From: Bacteroidota bacterium
GTDB taxonomy: Bacteria > Bacteroidota > Ignavibacteria > Ignavibacteriales > Ignavibacteriaceae
Direction: 5' to 3'
DNA length: 64,000 bases
NCBI GenBank assembly: GCA_023453665.1
Contig: JAEXTA010000089.1
Coordinates: 64,846 to 128,845, forward strand
The notes under the pieces: model-generated
Seen by the model: only the letters and a program-made list of their open reading frames with translations
Told to the model about the DNA's origin: nothing
Database searches by the model: none
Position numbers and translations under genes: made by a program
Shown: positions 17,418-63,409 of the stretch, piece by piece
Numbering within the stretch: position 1 is the stretch's first letter
Layout: each line of letters begins with the position of its first letter

Positions 17418-17554
17418 TTTCTATCCAATAAAAAATTCCTGTTTTTATTTTTTGATTTTAATCTTAAATTAAAACCAGGAACCTAACTCAAATTACTGCC
17501 TTAATAACCTGCCGGGGATTAATAATCAGCTAACAAAAAATTTTTGAGGTGAAC

Positions 17555-19405
17555 ATGAAAAAGTTATTGTTACTGTTAGTCCTTTGTTTCATACCCGCTG
17601 CGTATTCACAGACAAGTATTGATTTCACTAATTTTAACAGTTCATCTGCAAACGGCTGGATGATGGCTAACGGTTCCCAGCCCAATAAATGGGTAATAGG
17701 AGGTGCGGCAAGTTATTACGATTTTTTTTCCCGTTCCGGCGCTTATATAAGTAATGATATGGGAACGACGTATGGTTACGTTGACGATACTACCGCGATT
17801 GTTCATTTTTACAAAGACATTGCAATAAATGCTGTGACAAAAGATATGATGCTTACATTTAAACTTATGTGTCCTGGTGAAGAGGGCAATGATTACCTGA
17901 CCGTGCATGTTGTTTCATCGTCGATAACACCGCAGGCAGGTGTTGAGTTGACAGAAGGTTTGGTGGGAAAATCGGAATACAGCGGTGATGACTACTGGAG
18001 AGGTTATTCTATAAATCTTAAAAGAGATCTTTACACAGAAAATTTTATGAGAATTGTTTTTACATGGAAGAATGACAACAACGGATCAGGAACTAATCCG
18101 GCGGCATTGGATGAAATCAGACTATCTGAACTAAGTATGAATTATGATACTTTTCTTCCCAAAATTAATCTGCCAAGCGGACGATATTACGGCGGCTCGT
18201 TGATGAGCGGTTATTCAACATATTTTGTCGGCGGCGATGTCGGTGGTCCGCCAACACAGCAGGCAGTTGAAATTGATTACGGCGGACAGGCAGGTAAAGA
18301 TCTTCCTCAAATCACAGAAGCCGTAAGATTAAATGAACTTACAAAAATGAACGGAAAGATTTTCAGCATTGGAGGATTTAATACCGGCGCTACTGATCCT
18401 ACAGATGAAATTTATTCCCTGGACTTAAAAACTTTTCAATGGAACCCGGAAAATCCTTACCCGAAAAAAATATTCTACCATCGTGTTGCCACTTACGATT
18501 GGAAGGCAATGTATTCAATCGGCGGATCTGACGAAACAAATCAGCTTCTGAATAGCGTTTACTACAAATTAGCGGCTGGTATAAATTGGGAAGAAGCAAC
18601 ACCTCTCCCCGGCGATGGTCGGGCAGACGGCGGATTGGCAATTCTTGATCGCGAAAATAAAATTTTTTACGTCGGCGGATTTACAAACTCATTTGATTTT
18701 CAAAGACAGGTTGACAGCGTTTTTATCGGGACAATTGATACAGCAAATCCCGGTGTTATAACATGGACAACAGGAACAAGTTTTCCGGGCGGACCACGTG
18801 CAAGGCTACGCGCATTTCCGTGGGGCAGAGATAAAGTTATAGTTGTTGGAGGAACGGATGGGGGGAATTTCAACACCTCAACAATTTTTAATGATGTATG
18901 GGAATACGATCTGTCCGAAGATCAATGGACGCTGCTTGGTAATATGCCGCTTGCATTGTGTGCTTATATGGGCGGGACAGAAAGATTATCCGGAGGATTG
19001 TGGGCAATGTATTTCGGCGGAGGAATTAAACCCGGTCCCGCGATTTCAAATACTACCTATGCTTACTTTGATACAGTACAAACTCCGACATCAGTTGAAG
19101 ACAATGAAACAGTTGTGAATGATTATTTTCTTTCACAAAACTATCCAAACCCCTTCAACCCAACAACAAAAATAAAGTTTACAATACCAGCCGTAGAGAC
19201 GAGGCACGCCTCGTCTCAACACGCCGTAAGCCTAAAAGTCTTCGACATACTCGGCAATGAAGTTGCTACTCTAGTAAACGAAACAAAACCATCCGGCACT
19301 TACGAAGTTGAGTTCAATGCGGAAGGATTATCAAGCGGTGTTTATTTCTATCAGTTAAAAGCAGGTAGCTTTATTTCAACAAAAAAACTTTTACTGCTGA
19401 AATAA
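17555..19405 (+). CDS. T9SS-sorted protein: MAM/choice-of-anchor-J-like N-domain + Kelch-like repeats + type-A CTD
   Basis: ATG at 17555 after GAGG (the track uses GTG at 17549). Signal peptide present. Repeated GG..G motifs (IFSIGGFN, YSIGGSD, FYVGGFT, VIVVGGTDG) typical of Kelch blades. C-terminal NYPNPFNPTTKIKF...KKLLLLK. Confidence 0.8.
   Translation: MKKLLLLLVLCFIPAAYSQTSIDFTNFNSSSANGWMMANGSQPNKWVIGGAASYYDFFSRSGAYISNDMGTTYGYVDDTTAIVHFYKDIAINAVTKDMMLTFKLMCPGEEGNDYLTVHVVSSSITPQAGVELTEGLVGKSEYSGDDYWRGYSINLKRDLYTENFMRIVFTWKNDNNGSGTNPAALDEIRLSELSMNYDTFLPKINLPSGRYYGGSLMSGYSTYFVGGDVGGPPTQQAVEIDYGGQAGKDLPQITEAVRLNELTKMNGKIFSIGGFNTGATDPTDEIYSLDLKTFQWNPENPYPKKIFYHRVATYDWKAMYSIGGSDETNQLLNSVYYKLAAGINWEEATPLPGDGRADGGLAILDRENKIFYVGGFTNSFDFQRQVDSVFIGTIDTANPGVITWTTGTSFPGGPRARLRAFPWGRDKVIVVGGTDGGNFNTSTIFNDVWEYDLSEDQWTLLGNMPLALCAYMGGTERLSGGLWAMYFGGGIKPGPAISNTTYAYFDTVQTPTSVEDNETVVNDYFLSQNYPNPFNPTTKIKFTIPAVETRHASSQHAVSLKVFDILGNEVATLVNETKPSGTYEVEFNAEGLSSGVYFYQLKAGSFISTKKLLLLK
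19193..19220. repeat. In-frame palindromic element (GTAGAGAC family) inside the T9SS CTD coding sequence
   Basis: GAGACGAGGC-AC-GCCTCGTCTC is a perfect 10-bp inverted repeat at 19196-19217. It encodes ETRHASS in the CTD loop. Confidence 0.8.
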
Positions 19406-20046: not shown

Positions 20047-21696
20047 CTATTTCATCAGTATCATTTTTTTAGTCTGATTGAATTGACCGGATTTTAAAGT
20101 ATAAAAGTATAATCCGCTTGATAATTCATTCGCACTAAAATTGACTTCATAACTTCCGGGGCTTTTTTCTCCATTAACCAGGGTAACAATTTCTTTACCA
20201 AGCACATCGTAAACACGCAATGTTACCCACGCCCGGGACACATAGTATCCGTCCCCAACAGTGTATCGAATTTTTGTATTTGGATTGAATGGATTAGGGT
20301 AATTTTGTTCAAGTGAAAAACTTTTTACAAAGAAATCTTCCTCATCAACATTTGTTGTTGCTGTTAATTTAACAGCCATTAAATCCTGGTTCCCGTTTGT
20401 ACCTTCCCCATCCCCAGATGCATATACATTCCCAACTCCATCAATCCACATTGCAAATGCTCTTGATGATTCGTTTATATCATAAGCATATTCCCATTGA
20501 TAATTTCCTGATGAGTTATACTTTACAACAGTAAATACAAAGTTTGAACCAGTCCGGTTGCTTTCGCCGCAAACATAAATATTTCCATCTGCATCAAGAT
20601 TAATTGCAAGGGGATCATCATCAAGATTATTCGGACCATCATAATATGATACCCACTGCTGTACTCCGGAACTATTATATTTTACGATTGCGAAATCATT
20701 GTACCCGCTTCCTGAGGCCCTTCTTGTTCTTCCGGTTACAAATACATTTCCACTTTCATCTAACACCATATCTTCGGGAATATCCTGAGCATTATTTTCA
20801 TTGAACTCTGATCGCCATAAGACTTGTCCGGCAGCATTTATTTTTAGTGTTGCATAGTCTGTTCCGCTGTTTGTGTTTTGAATTCTGCATAACGCATAAA
20901 TATTTCCCTCATCATCCAGATCAAGATCAATTGCAAATTCATTAAGACTGTTATTAGTTCCATTAACACTAACTGTCCAGACGGTATCAAGAGACGAATT
21001 GTATTTGATAATTACCACTTCCTCTCCGTTTGTTAATCCGCTGAAACTATGTCCTGCGGAAAATATATTCCCGTTATTATCAGCGATTATATTTGTTCCG
21101 TCATCACTTGCATTAGTCACCTGTCCGAAATAATGCCAGTCAAGGATGTTGCCGTTTGCATCCATTTTTATTGTTGCCATATCATAGTAACCGTTATTTA
21201 AAGGTGAAAGTCTTCCTGTTACATAAACGTTACCATTTTCATCGGCAAAAACATCATAGGCTTCACCATCTGAAGTACCGGAAGAATCAAAAGCACATAT
21301 CCACTGCAGCACACCGGTTGAAGAATATTTAAGAGTTACGATTTTACTTGCAACCGAAGTCCAGTCACTTGTTCCGGTTACATAAACATTGCCGGAGTTA
21401 TCAACACAAATACCATAAGGACGGTCAGTTCTGTTTTGCGGACCATTGTAAATAGCTGTCCATTCGGCATTTCCTGATATGTTACATTTAACAGTGATTA
21501 AATCAGAACCTTGTCCTCCCTGTGTAAAATATCCGTATCCCGTTATATAAGCATTGCCTGAATTATCATACACAACACGTTCTGCTGTCTCGGGTACATT
21601 TCCGGGAGCTGTAAAAAAACTCATCCATTGCGGTGCGATTTGTGCAAAGAGTATTGGCGGACAACAAAGCAGAACAAACAGTATCACTGCTTTCAT
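20047..21696 (-). CDS. T9SS-sorted SBBP-repeat beta-propeller protein
   Basis: Signal peptide. Many D.SGN.YVTG / D..GN.Y..G repeats (SBBP-type). C-terminal NYPNPFNPNTKIRY...KKMILMK. Confidence 0.8.
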   Translation of the reverse strand: MKAVILFVLLCCPPILFAQIAPQWMSFFTAPGNVPETAERVVYDNSGNAYITGYGYFTQGGQGSDLITVKCNISGNAEWTAIYNGPQNRTDRPYGICVDNSGNVYVTGTSDWTSVASKIVTLKYSSTGVLQWICAFDSSGTSDGEAYDVFADENGNVYVTGRLSPLNNGYYDMATIKMDANGNILDWHYFGQVTNASDDGTNIIADNNGNIFSAGHSFSGLTNGEEVVIIKYNSSLDTVWTVSVNGTNNSLNEFAIDLDLDDEGNIYALCRIQNTNSGTDYATLKINAAGQVLWRSEFNENNAQDIPEDMVLDESGNVFVTGRTRRASGSGYNDFAIVKYNSSGVQQWVSYYDGPNNLDDDPLAINLDADGNIYVCGESNRTGSNFVFTVVKYNSSGNYQWEYAYDINESSRAFAMWIDGVGNVYASGDGEGTNGNQDLMAVKLTATTNVDEEDFFVKSFSLEQNYPNPFNPNTKIRYTVGDGYYVSRAWVTLRVYDVLGKEIVTLVNGEKSPGSYEVNFSANELSSGLYFYTLKSGQFNQTKKMILMK

Positions 21697-25546: not shown

Positions 25547-26806
25547 TCACTTAATCATCAACATTTTTTTTGTTTCTTTAAAATCTCCGACTGTCATCTG
25601 GTAAAAGTAAATTCCGCTGGATAAGCCTGATGCATTCCATTCAATCTCATAAGTACCTTCAGATTTTTCTGCATTAACGAGAATGGCAATTTCATTACCC
25701 AAGACATCATATACTTTTAATGTTGTTTGTAGAGATGAGGCATGCCATGTCTCTACTACGGGAATTGTGTATTTGATCTTTGTGCTTGGGTTAAAAGGAT
25801 TCGGATAATTTTGTCCTAAATAAAAATCCACAGGCGAAGAATTATTTTCTTCAACAGAAGTAATATCGCTAGTTTTGCGTATCCAGATACCATAACCAGA
25901 ATTATTGACATCAGCAGCGGCAGCAACAATTAATCCCAAGTTAATATCCATAGCAGAAACAAATTGAAAAGGCGGAGTATTGCCCGGCAGGGCGTTTATT
26001 GATGTGCTGTCGGTATGAATTTTATACATTTCAGGAATCAAAGATCCGATAAACAAATATTCTCCATAGCTTTTAAATTCAGATGGATACCATGTGAAAG
26101 GTCCGATTCGTTCCCAGCTAGCTCCATCATTTGTACTTTGGAACATTGCACTGTAAGTCAAATAAAATAACCTGCCGTTAAGCTTTTCCAGTGAAGATAA
26201 AGTTGATGAACCCAAATTGCTTTCGGTGGGAGTCCATGTTAAACCAAAATCTTCAGATTTGTAAATAAGATTACCTGAAGAAACTAATAAACATGCAAAA
26301 AAATTATTCCCTGATCTCAAAAACTCACTGACGTTGGAATTTAAACTATCTATTGTTATTGCATTCCATGAAAAACCTTTATCAGTAGAGCGGTAAGACA
26401 TTGAATCAGCTCCGGCAAAAATATGATTTTCTGTTCTGTAAATCGTATTGATATTTTTGTCAGTAAGTTCTAATGTTAATTCATTCCAGGAAGTTCCATA
26501 GTTAGTTGAACTAAAAAGTCCGCTGTCGGTTGCCGCGTATATAAAAGTTGTATCCGGTTCTTTATAAGCAAATAAATCCCTAATAACTGATCCGTTTAAG
26601 CCGGACACAGCAACTTCCCAGCTTCCGCCAAGATTTGAAGTTCTGTATATAATTCCATTATCATACCCTGTTCCTGCAATAATAAAATCATCAACGTAAA
26701 CTAATGCGCCTACCTCTTCACCAGGTAAAGGATAATTTATTGAAGTCCATTGTGCCTTAATTGGTTTGACTATTAAAATTAACAAGAGTAAAAAAATATA
26801 TTTCAT
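25547..26806 (-). CDS. T9SS-sorted BNR/Asp-box beta-propeller protein
   Basis: Signal peptide. Five S/T.D/N.G.SW-type Asp-box motifs (SNLGGSWE, TNYGTSWN, TDKGFSWN, EDFGLTWT, TNDGASWE). C-terminal NYPNPFNPSTKIKY...KKMLMIK. Confidence 0.8.
   Translation of the reverse strand: MKYIFLLLLILIVKPIKAQWTSINYPLPGEEVGALVYVDDFIIAGTGYDNGIIYRTSNLGGSWEVAVSGLNGSVIRDLFAYKEPDTTFIYAATDSGLFSSTNYGTSWNELTLELTDKNINTIYRTENHIFAGADSMSYRSTDKGFSWNAITIDSLNSNVSEFLRSGNNFFACLLVSSGNLIYKSEDFGLTWTPTESNLGSSTLSSLEKLNGRLFYLTYSAMFQSTNDGASWERIGPFTWYPSEFKSYGEYLFIGSLIPEMYKIHTDSTSINALPGNTPPFQFVSAMDINLGLIVAAAADVNNSGYGIWIRKTSDITSVEENNSSPVDFYLGQNYPNPFNPSTKIKYTIPVVETWHASSLQTTLKVYDVLGNEIAILVNAEKSEGTYEIEWNASGLSSGIYFYQMTVGDFKETKKMLMIK
25729..25756. 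repeat. Degenerate GTAGAGAC-family palindrome inside the CTD coding sequence
   Basis: GTAGAGATGAGGCATGCCATGTCTCTAC. The outer 7 bp pair perfectly and the inner arms are degenerate. It encodes VETWHASSL at the same CTD loop position as 19193..19220. Confidence 0.6.
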
Positions 26807-26826
26807 TTTTGATCTTCTCAGTTTAT

Positions 26827-28941
26827 TTATTTTATTAAAATCATTTTTTTAGTTTCAACAAGATTATTTATTTGAAGCTGATAGAAATAAATCCCGCTGG
26901 ATAATCCAGCGGCATTCCATTCAACTTCATAAGTACCGGCAGATTTTTCTGCGTTAACGAGAATGGCAATTTCATTACCCAAAACATCATATACTTTTAA
27001 TGTTGTTTGTAGAGACGAGGTTTGCCTCTTCTCTAATTCAGGAATTGTATATTTGATCTTTGTAGTTGGATTAAAAGGGTTCGGATAATTTTGTAAAAGC
27101 AAAAATTCTGTTGGGGTTTTATTGATTTCATTTTCTGCAAAAGTAGCCCCGCCATTTGTAGTTCTGATAATTGTTCCGTATTCACCAACTGCTGTTCCGT
27201 TATTTTCATCAGTAAAAGAAACATCGTATAAGGTATTTCTTGTTCCGCTGAATTGTGAGATCCAGGTAGTTCCTCCATCTGTAGTTTTCAGAATAACACC
27301 TGATACACCTGCTGCAATTCCAATTTCAGAATTAATAAAAACAACGCTTGTTATATCGCTTGTAGTTCCACTTGATTGCAGAGTCCATTCTTCACCCCCA
27401 TTTGTAGTTTTTAGAATTGTTCCCTGATGCCCTACAATTATTCCATTGTTTAAGTCTGTAAAAAAAACTCCGTTAAGATTTCGAAAAGTTGAACTTGTTT
27501 GAGGCATCCAGTCAACTCCACCATTTGTAGTTTTTAAAATTCTACCATTGCCGCCAACAGCAGTTCCGTTAACATTATCAATAAAATGAACATCATAAAA
27601 ATTTTCTGATACCCCGCTTGATTGCGGAGACCATAATGTTCCTCCATTTGTCGTTCTTAATATTATTCCTTCATTTCCAACTATAGTCCCGTTATCCGGA
27701 TCAGTAAAATAAATTTCATTTAATTGTTTTGTTGTTCCGCTTACCTGTGTAGTCCAAGATGAGCCACTATTTGTTGTTCTAAGTATTTTTCCATTTGCTC
27801 CTGCAATTGTTCCATGAGTTGCATCCGCAAAGAAAACATCATATAGATAATTGGATGTTCCGCTTGATTGCGATGACCAAAGAGCGCCGCCGTTTGTAGT
27901 ACGTAATAATAAGCCTTCTTCCCCTACAGCTACTCCATTATCATTAGTTGGAAAGTAAACACTAAATATCCACCTTGATGTTCCTTGTGATTGTGATGTC
28001 CATTGAACACCACCATTTGTGGTCCTTAGTATTTTTCCATATTCACCAACAGCAGTTCCATTATTTAAGTCAGAAAAGTTGACACTGAATAATGATAAAT
28101 CAGTTCCGCTTGATTGAGGAGACCAATTAGCCCCGCCATTTGTTGTTCTTATGATAGAGCCAAAAAGACTAACAGCCGTTCCATTGTTTGCATCTCTGAA
28201 ATAAACACTCTTCAGCCAGTTTGAAGTTCCACTGGAAACCGGATTCCAATTAACTCCTCCGTTTGTTGTTCTCATTATTGTTCCGGAAGTACCAACGACT
28301 ATTCCGTTATTAGCATCTGTAAAAAATATAGCGTCAAACCCTGCCTGAATTCCCGATAGCTGCGGAAACCAATCAGTCCCTCCATTTGTAGTTCTGAGTA
28401 TTGTTCCGAAGCAAACTGCAGCTCCGTTATTGGCATCAATAAAATGAACACCATATATAGAATTTGTTGTTCCGCTTGATTGGGGCAACCAGTTATTACC
28501 ACCATCTGTAGTTTTAAGAATTGTACCATTTTCACCGACAATAATTCCGAGATTTGTGTTGATAAAAAAGATGTTTCTTAACGAACGTGTAGTTTGACTT
28601 TCCCGGGGAAACCAGGTATCACCACCATTTGTAGTTTTGATTATTAACCCACCTGAGCCAACAACTGTTCCATTATTTTCATCAGTAAAAAAAACAGCAT
28701 TTAAAGCATTGGTTGTTCCACTTGATTGAAAATTCCAATCGATGCCGCCATTTGTTGTTTTCAAAATTGTTCCGGCGTGACCGACAGTCCAGCCGACTGA
28801 AGACGAAATAAACTTAGCTCCAAATAGTGAATTGCCTTGCGGTAAGGGATTCTGCCAGAACCATCCGGCAGAGGCTGTAGATTGTGCTTTCAGAATATTA
28901 ATGCACATTATTAAAACCACAACAACGGAAAGCTTTTTCAT
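26827..28941 (-). CDS. T9SS-sorted Ycf48/BNR-like double beta-propeller protein
   Basis: Signal peptide. Fourteen ~40-aa repeats of the form G.IL(K/R)TTNGG..W..Q.SGT...L..V.F.D.N.G. C-terminal NYPNPFNPTTKIKY...KKMILIK. Confidence 0.85.
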   Translation of the reverse strand: MKKLSVVVVLIMCINILKAQSTASAGWFWQNPLPQGNSLFGAKFISSSVGWTVGHAGTILKTTNGGIDWNFQSSGTTNALNAVFFTDENNGTVVGSGGLIIKTTNGGDTWFPRESQTTRSLRNIFFINTNLGIIVGENGTILKTTDGGNNWLPQSSGTTNSIYGVHFIDANNGAAVCFGTILRTTNGGTDWFPQLSGIQAGFDAIFFTDANNGIVVGTSGTIMRTTNGGVNWNPVSSGTSNWLKSVYFRDANNGTAVSLFGSIIRTTNGGANWSPQSSGTDLSLFSVNFSDLNNGTAVGEYGKILRTTNGGVQWTSQSQGTSRWIFSVYFPTNDNGVAVGEEGLLLRTTNGGALWSSQSSGTSNYLYDVFFADATHGTIAGANGKILRTTNSGSSWTTQVSGTTKQLNEIYFTDPDNGTIVGNEGIILRTTNGGTLWSPQSSGVSENFYDVHFIDNVNGTAVGGNGRILKTTNGGVDWMPQTSSTFRNLNGVFFTDLNNGIIVGHQGTILKTTNGGEEWTLQSSGTTSDITSVVFINSEIGIAAGVSGVILKTTDGGTTWISQFSGTRNTLYDVSFTDENNGTAVGEYGTIIRTTNGGATFAENEINKTPTEFLLLQNYPNPFNPTTKIKYTIPELEKRQTSSLQTTLKVYDVLGNEIAILVNAEKSAGTYEVEWNAAGLSSGIYFYQLQINNLVETKKMILIK
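27009..27036. repeat. Degenerate GTAGAGAC-family palindrome inside the CTD coding sequence
   Basis: GTAGAGACGAGGTTTGCCTCTTCTCTAA, with arms AGAGACGAGG / CCTCTTCTCT pairing except for one mismatch. It encodes LEKRQTSSL at the same loop position. Confidence 0.6.
27123..28821 (-). repeat. Fourteen tandem ~120-nt coding repeats (propeller blades)
   Basis: The TTNGG motif recurs 12 times exactly, plus 2 variants (TTDGG, TTNSG), at ~40-aa spacing in the translation of 26827..28941. Confidence 0.8.
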
Positions 28942-29078
28942 ATTTTGCCTTTTGTCTAATGTAAATGAAAAATGTTTTTAAAGTGTCTTACACTATTTCA
29001 TGCGTAAAAAATGAAAATCGGGCTCAAATAAGATTGGTTAAGTTTTGAAAGGATTGAATTAGCTGTTTATAAAATTTG

Positions 29079-35348: not shown

Positions 35349-35375
35349 GTAGAGACGGGACAGTTCCGTCTCTAC
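35349..35375. repeat. Intergenic GTAGAGAC-family palindrome (probable bidirectional terminator)
   Basis: GTAGAGACGG-GACAGTT-CCGTCTCTAC is a perfect 10-bp stem with a 7-nt loop between convergent genes. The right arm contains the stop codon (35372-35374) of the minus-strand metallopeptidase gene. Confidence 0.85.
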
Positions 35376-36208
35376 AAATTATTTGTATTAAATGTGTTTC
35401 CCTGGTTTATATCTCCGGTTGTAAAACCTTTATAGAACCATTTCTTTCTTTGCTCAGATGTCCCATGTGTAAAAGATTCAGGAACAACATAACCCTGCGA
35501 GCTTTTTTGAATGCGATCATCGCCGACAGCACTTGCAGCGTTCAATGCTTCTTCAAGATCACCTTCATCAAGCAGATCTAGTCTTTCTGTGTAATGAGCC
35601 CAAACTCCTGCATAAAAATCAGCCTGAAGTTCAAGCCGTACAGAATACTTGTTATACTCTTGTTCACTAACCCTTGAACGAAGCTGGTTCATTTTATCCA
35701 TTGTTCCGGTTAAGTTCTGTATATGATGTCCAACTTCATGAGCAATTACATACGCCATTGCAAAATCACCAGGCGCTTTAAATTTCTGCTGAAGCTCATT
35801 ATAAAAACTTAAGTCAATATAAAGTTTTTCGTCCGCCGGACAGTAAAACGGACCCGTTGATGAACCTGCAACTCCGCAGGCGGATTCTACTTTTCCGCTG
35901 TATAAAACCAAAATTGGTTTTCTGTATGTTTCACCTTGTTCACTGAAAATTTTATCCCATACATTTTCAGTTTCTGCAAGAACAACAGAAACAAATTGAG
36001 CAAGTTCTTTATCCTCGGCGCTTTCTGTGTAGTTTGAGCTTCCTGTATCAGAAGAAACATTTTGAAGAATTGAAGTTGGATCACCGCCTAGCAGAAGTAC
36101 AACAATAACAATTGCAATTGTGCCTATTCCTCCGCCTACCATACCTTTGGGAGATAATCCTCTTCTATCTTCAACGTTTGAACTTTGTCTTCTTCCCTGC
36201 CAGCGCAT
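35372..36208 (-). CDS. YpfJ-type neutral zinc metallopeptidase (PF04228-like)
   Basis: Canonical N-terminus MRWQGRRQSSNVEDRRG, a TM segment, and HExxH (IAHEVGHHIQN). Confidence 0.85.
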   Translation of the reverse strand: MRWQGRRQSSNVEDRRGLSPKGMVGGGIGTIAIVIVVLLLGGDPTSILQNVSSDTGSSNYTESAEDKELAQFVSVVLAETENVWDKIFSEQGETYRKPILVLYSGKVESACGVAGSSTGPFYCPADEKLYIDLSFYNELQQKFKAPGDFAMAYVIAHEVGHHIQNLTGTMDKMNQLRSRVSEQEYNKYSVRLELQADFYAGVWAHYTERLDLLDEGDLEEALNAASAVGDDRIQKSSQGYVVPESFTHGTSEQRKKWFYKGFTTGDINQGNTFNTNNL

Positions 36209-44347: not shown

Positions 44348-44430
44348 GGCTAAAGCCGTAATTATTTATTTTCTTAACCCGACTTAAAAGTCGGGGCAAT
44401 TAGTAGTTGCCCCGAACTTTAGTTCGGGGA
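44348..44430. repeat. REP-like repeat (left flank) with two hairpins
   Basis: GGCTAAAGCCGTAATTATTTATTTTCTTAACCCGACTTAAAAGTCGGGG followed by the second hairpin CCCCGAAC-TTTA-GTTCGGGG. Confidence 0.7.
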
Positions 44431-44464: not shown

Positions 44465-44899
44465 TCAGTCTTTTACAATATCAAAACCATACTTTTTAAT
44501 AAACACATCAAATTCTTCCATAAATGTCTTTTCCTTATGATGTTCTTCCTGGTTATTTATATAATCTATGACTTTTTCTACAATTGATTTCGCAACTGAT
44601 ACAGCTATATAATCATCCTGCCATTCAAATTTTCCCCGGATTAATTTGTTTTTATTAATCCAAAACGAAGATTCTCCTTTTATTAACTGTGCTACTTTGC
44701 TAATAGTTTGGTCATTACCCAAGGAAAGAAGAATATGAATATGATCAGCTGTACAATTCATACAAATAATAAAAATATTTTTTGAAACAGAGTTTTCTTT
44801 AATGTGAGCTAATAATTTCTGTTTAAGTTCCTTTGTTATAATTTTTTCTCTATTCTTTGTAGAGAAAATTAAATGAACAAGAATTTTTATATATGGCAT
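44465..44899 (-). CDS. IS200/IS605-like Y1 transposase (REP-associated tyrosine transposase-like)
   Basis: The 144-aa size fits. HUH-like motif (ADHIHILLS), LIKGESS motif and WQDDYIAVSV (candidate catalytic Tyr), in the order seen in Y1_Tnp/RAYT proteins. Confidence 0.8.
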   Translation of the reverse strand: MPYIKILVHLIFSTKNREKIITKELKQKLLAHIKENSVSKNIFIICMNCTADHIHILLSLGNDQTISKVAQLIKGESSFWINKNKLIRGKFEWQDDYIAVSVAKSIVEKVIDYINNQEEHHKEKTFMEEFDVFIKKYGFDIVKD

Positions 44900-61909: not shown

Positions 61910-63409
61910 TCACTTAATCATCAGCATCTTTTTAGTTTCGACAATATTTCCGGATTCAAGTTTATACAGATAAACTCCGCTTGATAGATTTGAACCATCA
62001 AATGTAATTTCATAATCGCCTGCTTGTTTATTCTCATTTACCAGCGTGGCGACTTCATTGCCCAATACATTATATACTTTCAATATCACATTTGATGTTT
62101 GACCATTCACATTTGCCGGGATCGAATATTTAATCTTTGTCGATGGATTAAATGGATTCGGATAGTTCTGCTCAAGCGAAAATGTTTGAGGAGCTTCAAC
62201 ACTTACTTCTGATTTTAATTCAAAATATTCGAAAGAACCATCAAAGTCTGTCTGTTTTATTCTGTAAGAATATTTTCCTGTTGAAAGATTTTTATCAACG
62301 AAACTATAATTAGTCTGTTCAGTCGTATTTCCTCTTCCTTCAACAAACCCGACTTTGACAAAACCTGAATTGTTAACTTTTCTTTCTAATTCAAATCCCC
62401 TGTTATTTATTTCACTTGCCGTACTCCATTTTAATGTTATTGAACTTCCGTTAACCGATGCAGTGAATGAGTTAAGCTCAACGGGAAGATTTGGATTATC
62501 ATACTTAACTATTGTTCCGTTATCGCCAACTGTCCAGCCTTTTCCGCGATGAAGGAAATATGCTTCATTCAAAGTTGAAGATGAACCGCATGGCTGGCTT
62601 GTCCAGGATTGTCCGCCGTTAGTTGTGAAGAAAATTGTTCCGGCGATACTTACGCCCCATCCGTTATTGGCATCTTTAAAATAAATTCCGTTAACATCAA
62701 AGAAAATTCCCGAGTTGCGTGTAACCCAGTTTTGTCCGCCGTCACTTGTATAAATGAATGTGGAATTGTTACCCCCGGAAAAACCTACATTGTCATTAAT
62801 AAATTGAATATCGTGAAGATCATTACTTGAAACAGGGGCTGTTTGAGTAGTCCAGTTTGAACCAGAGTTAGATGAGTATCTTATTACTCCATCATCACCA
62901 ACCGCCCAGACATTTCCTGAACCCGAAGCTGCGGCTCCTCTGAATCTTGTTGTTGTTCCAGAATTCACCACAGTCCATGATGCGCCATTATCATTGGAGA
63001 CAGCGGCAAGTCCGTCATCACCGGCAGCGAAAACCATATTGCCTGAGCCTGAACTAACTTTGCGGAATTGTTCTGTTGTTCCACTTGAAACAGGACTCCA
63101 GGTAGTCCCGCCATTTACAGTTCTAACAATCGTTCCATTATCACCAACAGCTATCCCGATGTTTGCATCTTTAAATAAAATAGAATTAAGATCATTTCCG
63201 GTTGCTGTAACCTGAGTCCAGTTTTGTCCGGCATTTGTAGTTCGTAATAAAGTTCCTGCATCTCCGCAAACCCAGCCTGTAAGTTCGTCGATCATATAAA
63301 CGTCATTTAATATTTGTGTTGTTCCGGAAGTTTGATATTGCCAGAATTGTGAGTAGCCTGTTGAACAGATTATAACAGAGAAAAGAAGAGTATAAAAATA
63401 CCTTTTCAT
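61910..63409 (-). CDS. T9SS-sorted Ycf48/BNR-like seven-blade propeller + Fn3-like domain
   Basis: Signal peptide. About seven blades (LLRTTNAGQNW, IVRTVNGGTTW, ...). PVELNSFTA...LKWSTASEINNRGFELERK domain. C-terminal NYPNPFNPSTKIKY...KKMLMIK. Confidence 0.85.
   Translation of the reverse strand: MKRYFYTLLFSVIICSTGYSQFWQYQTSGTTQILNDVYMIDELTGWVCGDAGTLLRTTNAGQNWTQVTATGNDLNSILFKDANIGIAVGDNGTIVRTVNGGTTWSPVSSGTTEQFRKVSSGSGNMVFAAGDDGLAAVSNDNGASWTVVNSGTTTRFRGAAASGSGNVWAVGDDGVIRYSSNSGSNWTTQTAPVSSNDLHDIQFINDNVGFSGGNNSTFIYTSDGGQNWVTRNSGIFFDVNGIYFKDANNGWGVSIAGTIFFTTNGGQSWTSQPCGSSSTLNEAYFLHRGKGWTVGDNGTIVKYDNPNLPVELNSFTASVNGSSITLKWSTASEINNRGFELERKVNNSGFVKVGFVEGRGNTTEQTNYSFVDKNLSTGKYSYRIKQTDFDGSFEYFELKSEVSVEAPQTFSLEQNYPNPFNPSTKIKYSIPANVNGQTSNVILKVYNVLGNEVATLVNENKQAGDYEITFDGSNLSSGVYLYKLESGNIVETKKMLMIK

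Follow-up and report, generated by a model that had tools for sequence, protein, structure and literature searches.

An in-frame double-foot REP palindrome in a loop of type IX secretion sorting domains of an Ignavibacteriaceae genome

The palindrome, its host gene and the loop that it occupies

The stretch of DNA analysed here (64,000 nucleotides, positions 64,846 to 128,845 of contig JAEXTA010000089.1 in GenBank assembly GCA_023453665.1, from a Bacteroidota bacterium of the family Ignavibacteriaceae; hereafter 'the window') carries a gene for a cargo protein of the type IX secretion system (T9SS), and within the C-terminal sorting domain (CTD) encoded by this gene lies a short palindrome that we assign to the repetitive extragenic palindromic (REP) elements. 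A perfect 10-bp stem, GAGACGAGGC-AC-GCCTCGTCTC (window 19196-19217), forms the centre of a 28-bp unit, GTAGAGACGAGGCACGCCTCGTCTCAAC (window 19193-19220), which includes the short terminal motifs, or feet, and has the slightly decayed form GTAGAGACG-N10-CGTCTC(A)AC. A preliminary description had proposed a 10-bp palindrome translated in frame, and this is exactly what is found: positions 19193-19220 lie inside the open reading frame (ORF) 17549..19405(+) and are read as VETRHASS. The two features are as follows.

17549..19405 (+): host gene, a T9SS cargo protein of 618 residues; CTD at about 19142-19402, with the REP loop at P26-Q36 of a 97-residue CTD model
19193..19220 (+): copy of the REP family here called family A, 28 bp; 5' foot GTAG intact, 3' foot decayed to CAAC; in frame as VETRHASS(Q)

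The pattern GTAGAGAC-N(4-24)-GTCTC has three matches in the window where 0.02 are expected, a number reached in none of 100 shuffled sequences, and the predicted RNA fold of the palindrome (-17.9 kcal/mol) corresponds to z = -4.9. The ORF ends in KKLLLLK, and a Por_Secre_tail domain (PF18962) was recognised at its extreme C-terminus (C55:83987-84238 in our contig numbering; 44.8 bits against a cut-off of 27). SprA, the component of the T9SS machinery that was searched for, is present in the genome (translocon model TIGR04189, 1011 bits against a cut-off of 200).

In an AlphaFold model of the CTD (pLDDT 82.9; seven strands arranged as an Ig-like β-sandwich), residues P26-Q36, including those encoded by the palindrome, make up the loop that joins strand 18-25 to strand 37-45 (β2-β3), and residues 26-36 fall in the block of lowest pLDDT. 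The Foldseek matches include generic Ig-like folds as well as the T9SS CTD structures 8qb1 and 8glk_D. According to published T9SS work, CTDs are cleaved off after export, and the loop would thus be permissive because the domain is discarded; the insert is probably neutral for secretion.

The genome (G000; 4.32 Mb in 251 draft contigs, 35.6% GC) encodes 234 CTDs, as identified by iterative profile search. Among the 227 that could be anchored at the NPF motif, 142 share a modal NPF-to-VYD loop of 25 residues, and 63 have loops of 30-35 residues. With 33 residues the loop of the window gene is 8 longer than the mode, so that the longer loop noted in the preliminary description is borne out when CTDs are compared by loop length. 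The best stems that can be formed measure 3-8 bp in short loops and up to 16 bp in long ones.

The repeat family and the exchange of loop cassettes

The preliminary description had left room for the element having no further genomic copies. A genome-wide search instead located 47 sites of GTAGAGAC, about 20 of which form perfect or near-perfect 28-bp palindromes of the type GTAGAGACG-N10-CGTCTCTAC (family A), with three core variants (CATCGCGATG, GGGCATGCCC and AGGCATGCCT), consensus stems reaching 14-16 bp and predicted folds of -18 to -20 kcal/mol. By these relaxed criteria, 17 of the roughly 20 copies occupy one and the same CTD loop position in different CTD genes, and all 17 share the frame GTA-GAG-ACG, yielding VET(HRDA/GHAP/RHAS)SL. 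Only two copies lie outside CTDs, one in the window (35349-35375) and one at C251:34620. A stringent census of GT[AG]G...C[TC]AC palindromes counted 27 in the genome, 13 of them family A, and 11 of these 13 in CTDs. The window itself contains three further family A copies, together with a palindrome of a second family (family C) in the same loop of another CTD.

25729..25756 (-): decayed family A copy GTAGAGACATGGCATGCCTCATCTCTAC in the same CTD loop, gene 25550-26848(-), read VVETWHASSLQ
27009..27036 (-): decayed family A copy TTAGAGAAGAGGCAAACCTCGTCTCTAC in the same CTD loop, gene 26830-28977(-), read ELEKRQTSSLQ
35349..35375 (no strand assigned): REP GTAGAGACGGGACAGTTCCGTCTCTAC of 27 bp resembling family A, in the intergenic space of two convergent ORFs
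20231..20259 (-): decayed family C palindrome (intact form GTAGGGGACGCATATTATGCGTCCCCTAC) in the same CTD loop, gene 20047..21696(-), read VGDGYYVSRA

The likeness that the preliminary description saw between the window copy and the hairpin at 35349..35375 is borne out for the GTAGAGACG / CGTCTCTAC feet. The TAG of the intergenic copy (35372-35374, minus strand) is at the same time the stop codon of ORF 35372..36208(-). A TAG in a REP foot (frame b of GTAGAGAC) provides the stop of the adjacent gene in two places, namely at 35372-35374 of the window and at 1387-1389 of locus L030.

The loop houses additional classes of insert. Family C (GTAGGGGACGCATATTATGCGTCCCCTAC, read VGDAYYASP) is represented there by about 24 copies, many of them decayed, and the ortholog of the 20047..21696(-) gene in a genome of the same genus (G001, the congener) retains VGDAYYASPA; family B (TGTCACTCTTCGACAGGCTCAGAGTGACA, read SVTLRQAQSD) is represented by 5 copies. 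A further class in the same loop, SNVNGEMSNV, was considered as another palindrome and rejected, having no palindromy. It occurs as SNVNGEMSNV / ANVNGQTSNV at window 62060-62158 (-) and in about 6-8 other CTDs of this genome, exceeds the modal loop by 5 residues and resembles a short imperfect direct repeat (GTCAAA..GT). A different loop, ahead of L(T/S)SG(I/V)YF in the CTD, contains the palindrome ATTCTGAC-NNNG-GTCAGAAT, read SHSD(E/K/A)GQN, in at least three CTDs (for instance in the regions C101:1200-3511 and C192:4814-6347).

What is conserved among the 17 CTD copies of family A is, judged by comparison of their sequences, the palindrome at the nucleotide level. When the copies are compared in pairs, third codon positions have a mean identity of 0.47 in the left flank and of about 0.9 in the arms. 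Four copies match at 28 of 28 positions while the adjoining 4-10 nt differ, and among homologues the peptide core varies (HRDA, GHAP, RHAS, GYIP, WHAS) with base pairing retained. Since pairing is kept while the peptide changes, an ancient peptide subtype does not account for the copies. In a CTD tree constructed without the loop, family A requires 10 state changes compared with 16.6 after label shuffling, and family C 15 compared with 23.

Comparison with the congener reveals how a copy can reach a gene. The congener's ortholog of the window gene (89-90% amino acid identity, with near-identical CTD flanks) carries in its loop the unrelated palindrome CCCCTCCCGGGAGGGG, read RPLPGGERGG, and in the syntenic block the type of cassette differs in 3 of 7 ortholog pairs (A versus F, none versus A-like, none versus E), what distinguishes the orthologs being either an entire loop cassette or a more extensive patch of the CTD. 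A four-way alignment delimits the following patch around the window copy.

19167..19245 (+): recombination patch of about 75 nt, boundaries approximate, from ...TTTACAATACC through GTCTTCGAC

Within this patch the window gene matches the paralog neighbouring its ortholog in the congener, as well as C101:3287 of its own genome, shared derived changes included, and departs from its own ortholog; on both sides of the patch it matches that ortholog. Short-patch recombination thus explains the arrival of the window copy in the gene, and exchange between paralogs is, on the strength of these alignments, one shown route of spread. As for the in-frame insertion that the preliminary description had suggested, the part that stands is a REP read through in a permissive loop; a fresh insertion of the window copy itself gives way to recombination between paralogous CTDs, and is not demonstrable as such.

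REP identity and the transposase link

Searches with the exact feet found the pattern in 12 of 41 genomes of the same order, and a reversed control pattern gave no match. Among genomes the 10-nt core differs, but in almost every case it is self-complementary. In several genomes one variant dominates: G013 has solely ATGCATGCAT, G031 mainly GGATATATCC, and G036 both TAGCATGCTA and AGATATATCT. When public genomes were scanned, these feet were also detected in Bacteroidota, Cyanobacteria, Chloroflexota, Acidobacteriota and further phyla, where short-ORF (intergenic) settings hold most copies. Use of the CTD-loop niche varies by lineage, as is evident from the fraction of exact-foot copies that lie in loop 1 of a CTD (in the congener the remaining three lie at the locus of the transposase described below).

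G036: 0 of 14
G013: 0 of 8
G017: 1 of 6
G031: 8 of 14
G001 (congener): 7 of 10

The expectation that REPs are mostly extragenic fails in the genome of the window and holds in the sister genera G036 and G013. In other Ignavibacteriota (80 CTD loci), 26 of 93 loops are long, and a stem of at least 9 bp is present in 5 long loops and in none of the short ones. One Bacteroidales CTD (L096) bears the element in an apparently equivalent loop, and one Ignavibacteriota CTD (L012) in a different loop. Family A-type REPs are also read in frame in the linker just 5' of the CTD (..VVAVETQNFASLPTNFQLYQNYPNPF..) in a member of the Melioribacteraceae (L059) and in one of the Bacteroidales (L091), so that the CTD loop is not the sole site tolerated in T9SS cargo. 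In G013 the ATGCATGCAT variant forms tandem arrays (L009, G013:C9; L191, G013:C89), one of which is translated as VETM(H/Y)P repeats within a long ORF with a CTD at its end.

By its features, family A is a 'double-foot' GTAG...CTAC REP. This assignment draws on (i) the GTAG/CTAC feet, (ii) the intergenic copies in many phyla, and (iii) a REP-associated tyrosine transposase (RAYT) that is flanked by the same 28-mer in the congener. The preliminary description had spoken of an element like a REP or a miniature inverted-repeat transposable element (MITE); the former label is upheld by these three observations, and the latter is rejected, since the element lacks both a target-site duplication and terminal inverted repeats enclosing a spacer.

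The transposase of the congener, which resembles RAYTs of subclass 2.4, is an ORF of 194 residues, placed as follows.

L030 1459..2043 (-): RAYT of the congener, with family A REPs at 1386, 2081 and 2137

Its sole NCBIfam match is REP_Tyr_transpos (NF047646, E = 1e-16) and its sole PDB match is TnpA_REP of E. coli (4ER8); the motifs NHIH, WQ and YIKNNP are present. The 28-mer also occurs in frame within the gene, between HUH and Y (...HIHGIIILGS-VETGHAPSL-LGNVV...), and RAYT-internal copies, in both open frames, were seen in G017, G030, G006, G031 and Bacteroidota loci. The core of the RAYT-flanking 28-mer, GGGCATGCCC, fills four CTD loops of the congener, whereas the in-gene copy is one base off (GGGCGTGCCC). 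The CTD copies thus track the REP pool of that genome.

The genome of the window possesses RAYT or IS200-like genes that are flanked by other hairpins, namely four PF01797 matches and a fifth RAYT on C147. The latter (C147:31584-32273; motifs NHFH, WQ and YIEQNP) is intact, was absent from the first Pfam pass and lies near the 3' end of a T9SS cargo CTD; each side of it carries two distinct REPs (GTAGGGGAGGGGCTTGCCCCTCCC and GACAGGGCGAGCCCTGTCCCTAC), of which GTAGGGGAGGGGCTTGCCCCTCCC resembles the loop cassettes PLPGGERGG / SPLLGGGRGG. A pseudogenised RAYT with one internal TGA and one internal TAA (C167:31165-31739, L004) lies between two identical 29-bp double-foot REPs, GTAGGGACAGCATAATATGCTGTCCCTAC, two further copies of which are found at C167:36277 and C212:11388; all are intergenic, and this REP resembles families A and C.

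Origin of the loop copies, precedents and neighbouring elements

The presence of an in-frame REP in a loop of a T9SS CTD is confirmed. We consider it likely that a double-foot REP settled in this loop and was spread among paralogous CTDs by short-patch recombination. The palindrome would then be a copy of 5'-GTAGAGACG-(10-nt self-complementary core)-CGTCTCTAC-3', a hairpin of the type that, by analogy, would be bound and cut in single-stranded form by RAYT/TnpA_REP enzymes of subclass 2.4 (HUH-Y1). A founding copy probably entered the β2-β3 loop of a type A CTD in the stop-free frame GTA-GAG-ACG, where it would lengthen a poorly ordered surface loop by 7-8 residues (VET....SL) in a domain that is cleaved off. 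More than 230 genes of the genome end in closely similar CTD modules, and short-patch homologous recombination would move the loop cassette between them; such recombination among paralogous modules would make the CTD loops the main reservoir of family A in this genome. RAYT catalysis probably made the founding insertion, or insertions, and may still feed variants into the loops.

Several observations weigh against this scenario. The RAYT of the congener scores 60.8 bits, below the curated NCBIfam cut-off of 80. A RAYT flanked by family A was not found in the 251-contig draft of the window's genome, where the site syntenic with the congener's RAYT holds a solo REP only (C251:34620); taken together, these two results give no sign of current RAYT activity on the copies of this genome. 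The use of a single open frame, out of two, in all CTD copies is in keeping with few founders plus recombination, and also with selection on the peptide. The CTD tree, based on roughly 215 nt, has poor resolution, no clean pair of filled and empty sites differing by exactly 28 bp was encountered among the orthologs compared, and the net gain in loop length is 21-24 nt, not 28.

Among the alternatives, targeted insertion by RAYT as the main route, with each CTD copy representing an independent transposition or the replacement of one REP by another and recombination being secondary, fares best, and yet appears doubtful to us. It would accommodate the four identical 28-mers in differing immediate contexts, the recurrence of the congener's RAYT-flanking core in four CTD loops, the scatter of family A over the CTD tree, and the fact that several GTAG-headed families begin at one loop position; some short loops, moreover, read SPVGS, codons for which can spell GTAGG (the loops in question being known from the peptide alone). 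However, the window copy came with about 75 nt of paralog flank, and it shares a derived CACG centre and the loss of the 3' foot with C101:3287 and with the neighbouring gene of the congener. The exclusive use of a single frame is better explained by shared descent than by repeated insertion, and both the missing family A RAYT and the missing pair of empty and filled sites count against targeted insertion as well.

It is improbable that the hairpin serves a function in CTD genes, be it as an mRNA structure that halts translation ahead of the sorting domain or determines mRNA stability, or as a DNA or RAYT-binding site that promotes the shuffling of modules. Such a role would fit the conservation of the arms at the nucleotide level, third codon positions included, the covarying cores that retain pairing, the stable folds in a genome of low GC content, and the recurrence of the niche in distant Ignavibacteriota and in one Bacteroidales CTD. 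On the other hand, the 142 CTDs with the modal loop lack an insert, many copies are visibly decaying (among them 3 of the 4 in the window), orthologs swap unrelated palindromes or have none, and the element is purely intergenic in sister genera. Still a little less probable is the bolder proposal that the palindromes in CTD loops are working parts of cassette exchange, that is, hot spots of recombination or nicking recognisable by RAYT which shuffle sorting modules, or else a shared cis-acting RNA hairpin that coordinates the translation of T9SS cargo; if true, the exchange of palindrome cassettes would shuffle secretion competence among hundreds of cargo genes. Finally, an ancient CTD subtype with a loop peptide VETxHAxSL under selection at the protein level and merely incidental palindromy, which the preliminary description had named as the outcome that would speak against it, would agree with the one frame and one loop position of all CTD copies, but has next to no chance of being correct and is rejected, given that homologues retain the palindrome while the peptide core varies freely, that the same 28-mers occur in intergenic DNA and within RAYT genes (where the second open frame is used too), and that orthologs differ in their cassettes.

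The closest precedent for family A is the REP population of TnpA_REP/RAYT subclass 2.4 (Bertels group 4), for which double-foot REPs and in-frame REPs inside tnpA_REP have been described (Quentin et al. 2018, BMC Genomics 19:475, PMC6006769). Family A resembles that population in (i) a long hairpin bounded by the feet 5' GT[AG]G and 3' C[TC]AC, (ii) a RAYT with NH[IFV]H, WQ and YIxNNP motifs, (iii) REPs that flank the RAYT and lie in frame between HuH and Y, as seen in the congener, and (iv) occurrence in Bacteroidetes, Cyanobacteria and scattered phyla. It differs in that the family is almost wholly coding in the window's genome and confined to one loop of one domain family, in its low copy number (about 20), and in that the congener alone yielded a cognate RAYT. 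Short REPs tagged with GTAG or CGTC and lying in frame within ORFs have likewise been reported, the ORFs probably remaining functional, and the authors of that study argue that proteins tolerate such insertions where they fall in modular or terminal regions (Di Nocera, De Gregorio & Rocco 2013, BMC Genomics 14:522, PMC3733652). The hosts given there are scattered, many being genes of replication and repair, whereas family A has a recurrent niche in a single domain; exchange of cassettes between paralogs and orthologs, and T9SS proteins as hosts, are features of the present system. A third precedent, described by Ogata et al. (2000) as cited in PMC3733652, is provided by the Rickettsia palindromic elements (RPEs), selfish palindromes that lie in frame in genes which stay functional and that add peptide segments at the protein surface. 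The likeness of family A to the RPEs, an in-frame palindromic repeat that adds a surface peptide, is a functional analogy only. RPEs measure about 100-150 bp and are spread over many unrelated genes rather than one domain loop; to our knowledge they have no RAYT partner, and their sequence is unrelated to that of family A.

In the open-access literature searched, no paper linking REPs or RAYTs to T9SS CTDs was found. The window palindrome thus appears to represent a known kind of element in a recurrent and apparently undescribed coding niche. REPs are defined as extragenic, and in-frame cases have been reported as scattered curiosities or from within the genes of their own transposases; in the present genome, a single surface loop of a secretion tag is the main home of a REP family and is shared with other palindrome families, which are swapped even between orthologs. 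This offers a natural and countable system for the persistence of selfish hairpins under coding constraint and for their spread by gene conversion among hundreds of paralogous modules, and a permissive insertion site in T9SS CTDs that could serve for tagging. For annotation, segments such as VETGHAPSL and GDAYYASP in CTDs should be taken as translated repeats and not as functional peptide motifs.

The window also contains a Y1 transposase gene at 44549-44887 (-), which was considered as a partner of family A and set aside, since it is of the IS200/IS605 type (NF033573, 65 bits against a cut-off of 55) and is not associated with the palindrome. Two overlapping hairpins near window 44391-44429, TCGGGGCAATTAGTAGTTGCCCCGA and CCCCGAACTTTAGTTCGGGG, adjoin this gene. 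Elsewhere in the genome, an IS200-like Y1 gene (C166:6368-7610, L001) lies amid arrays of small hairpins whose loops contain GTAG (AAATCCTCGTAGAGGATTT and TATTTCCTCGTAGAGGAAATA).

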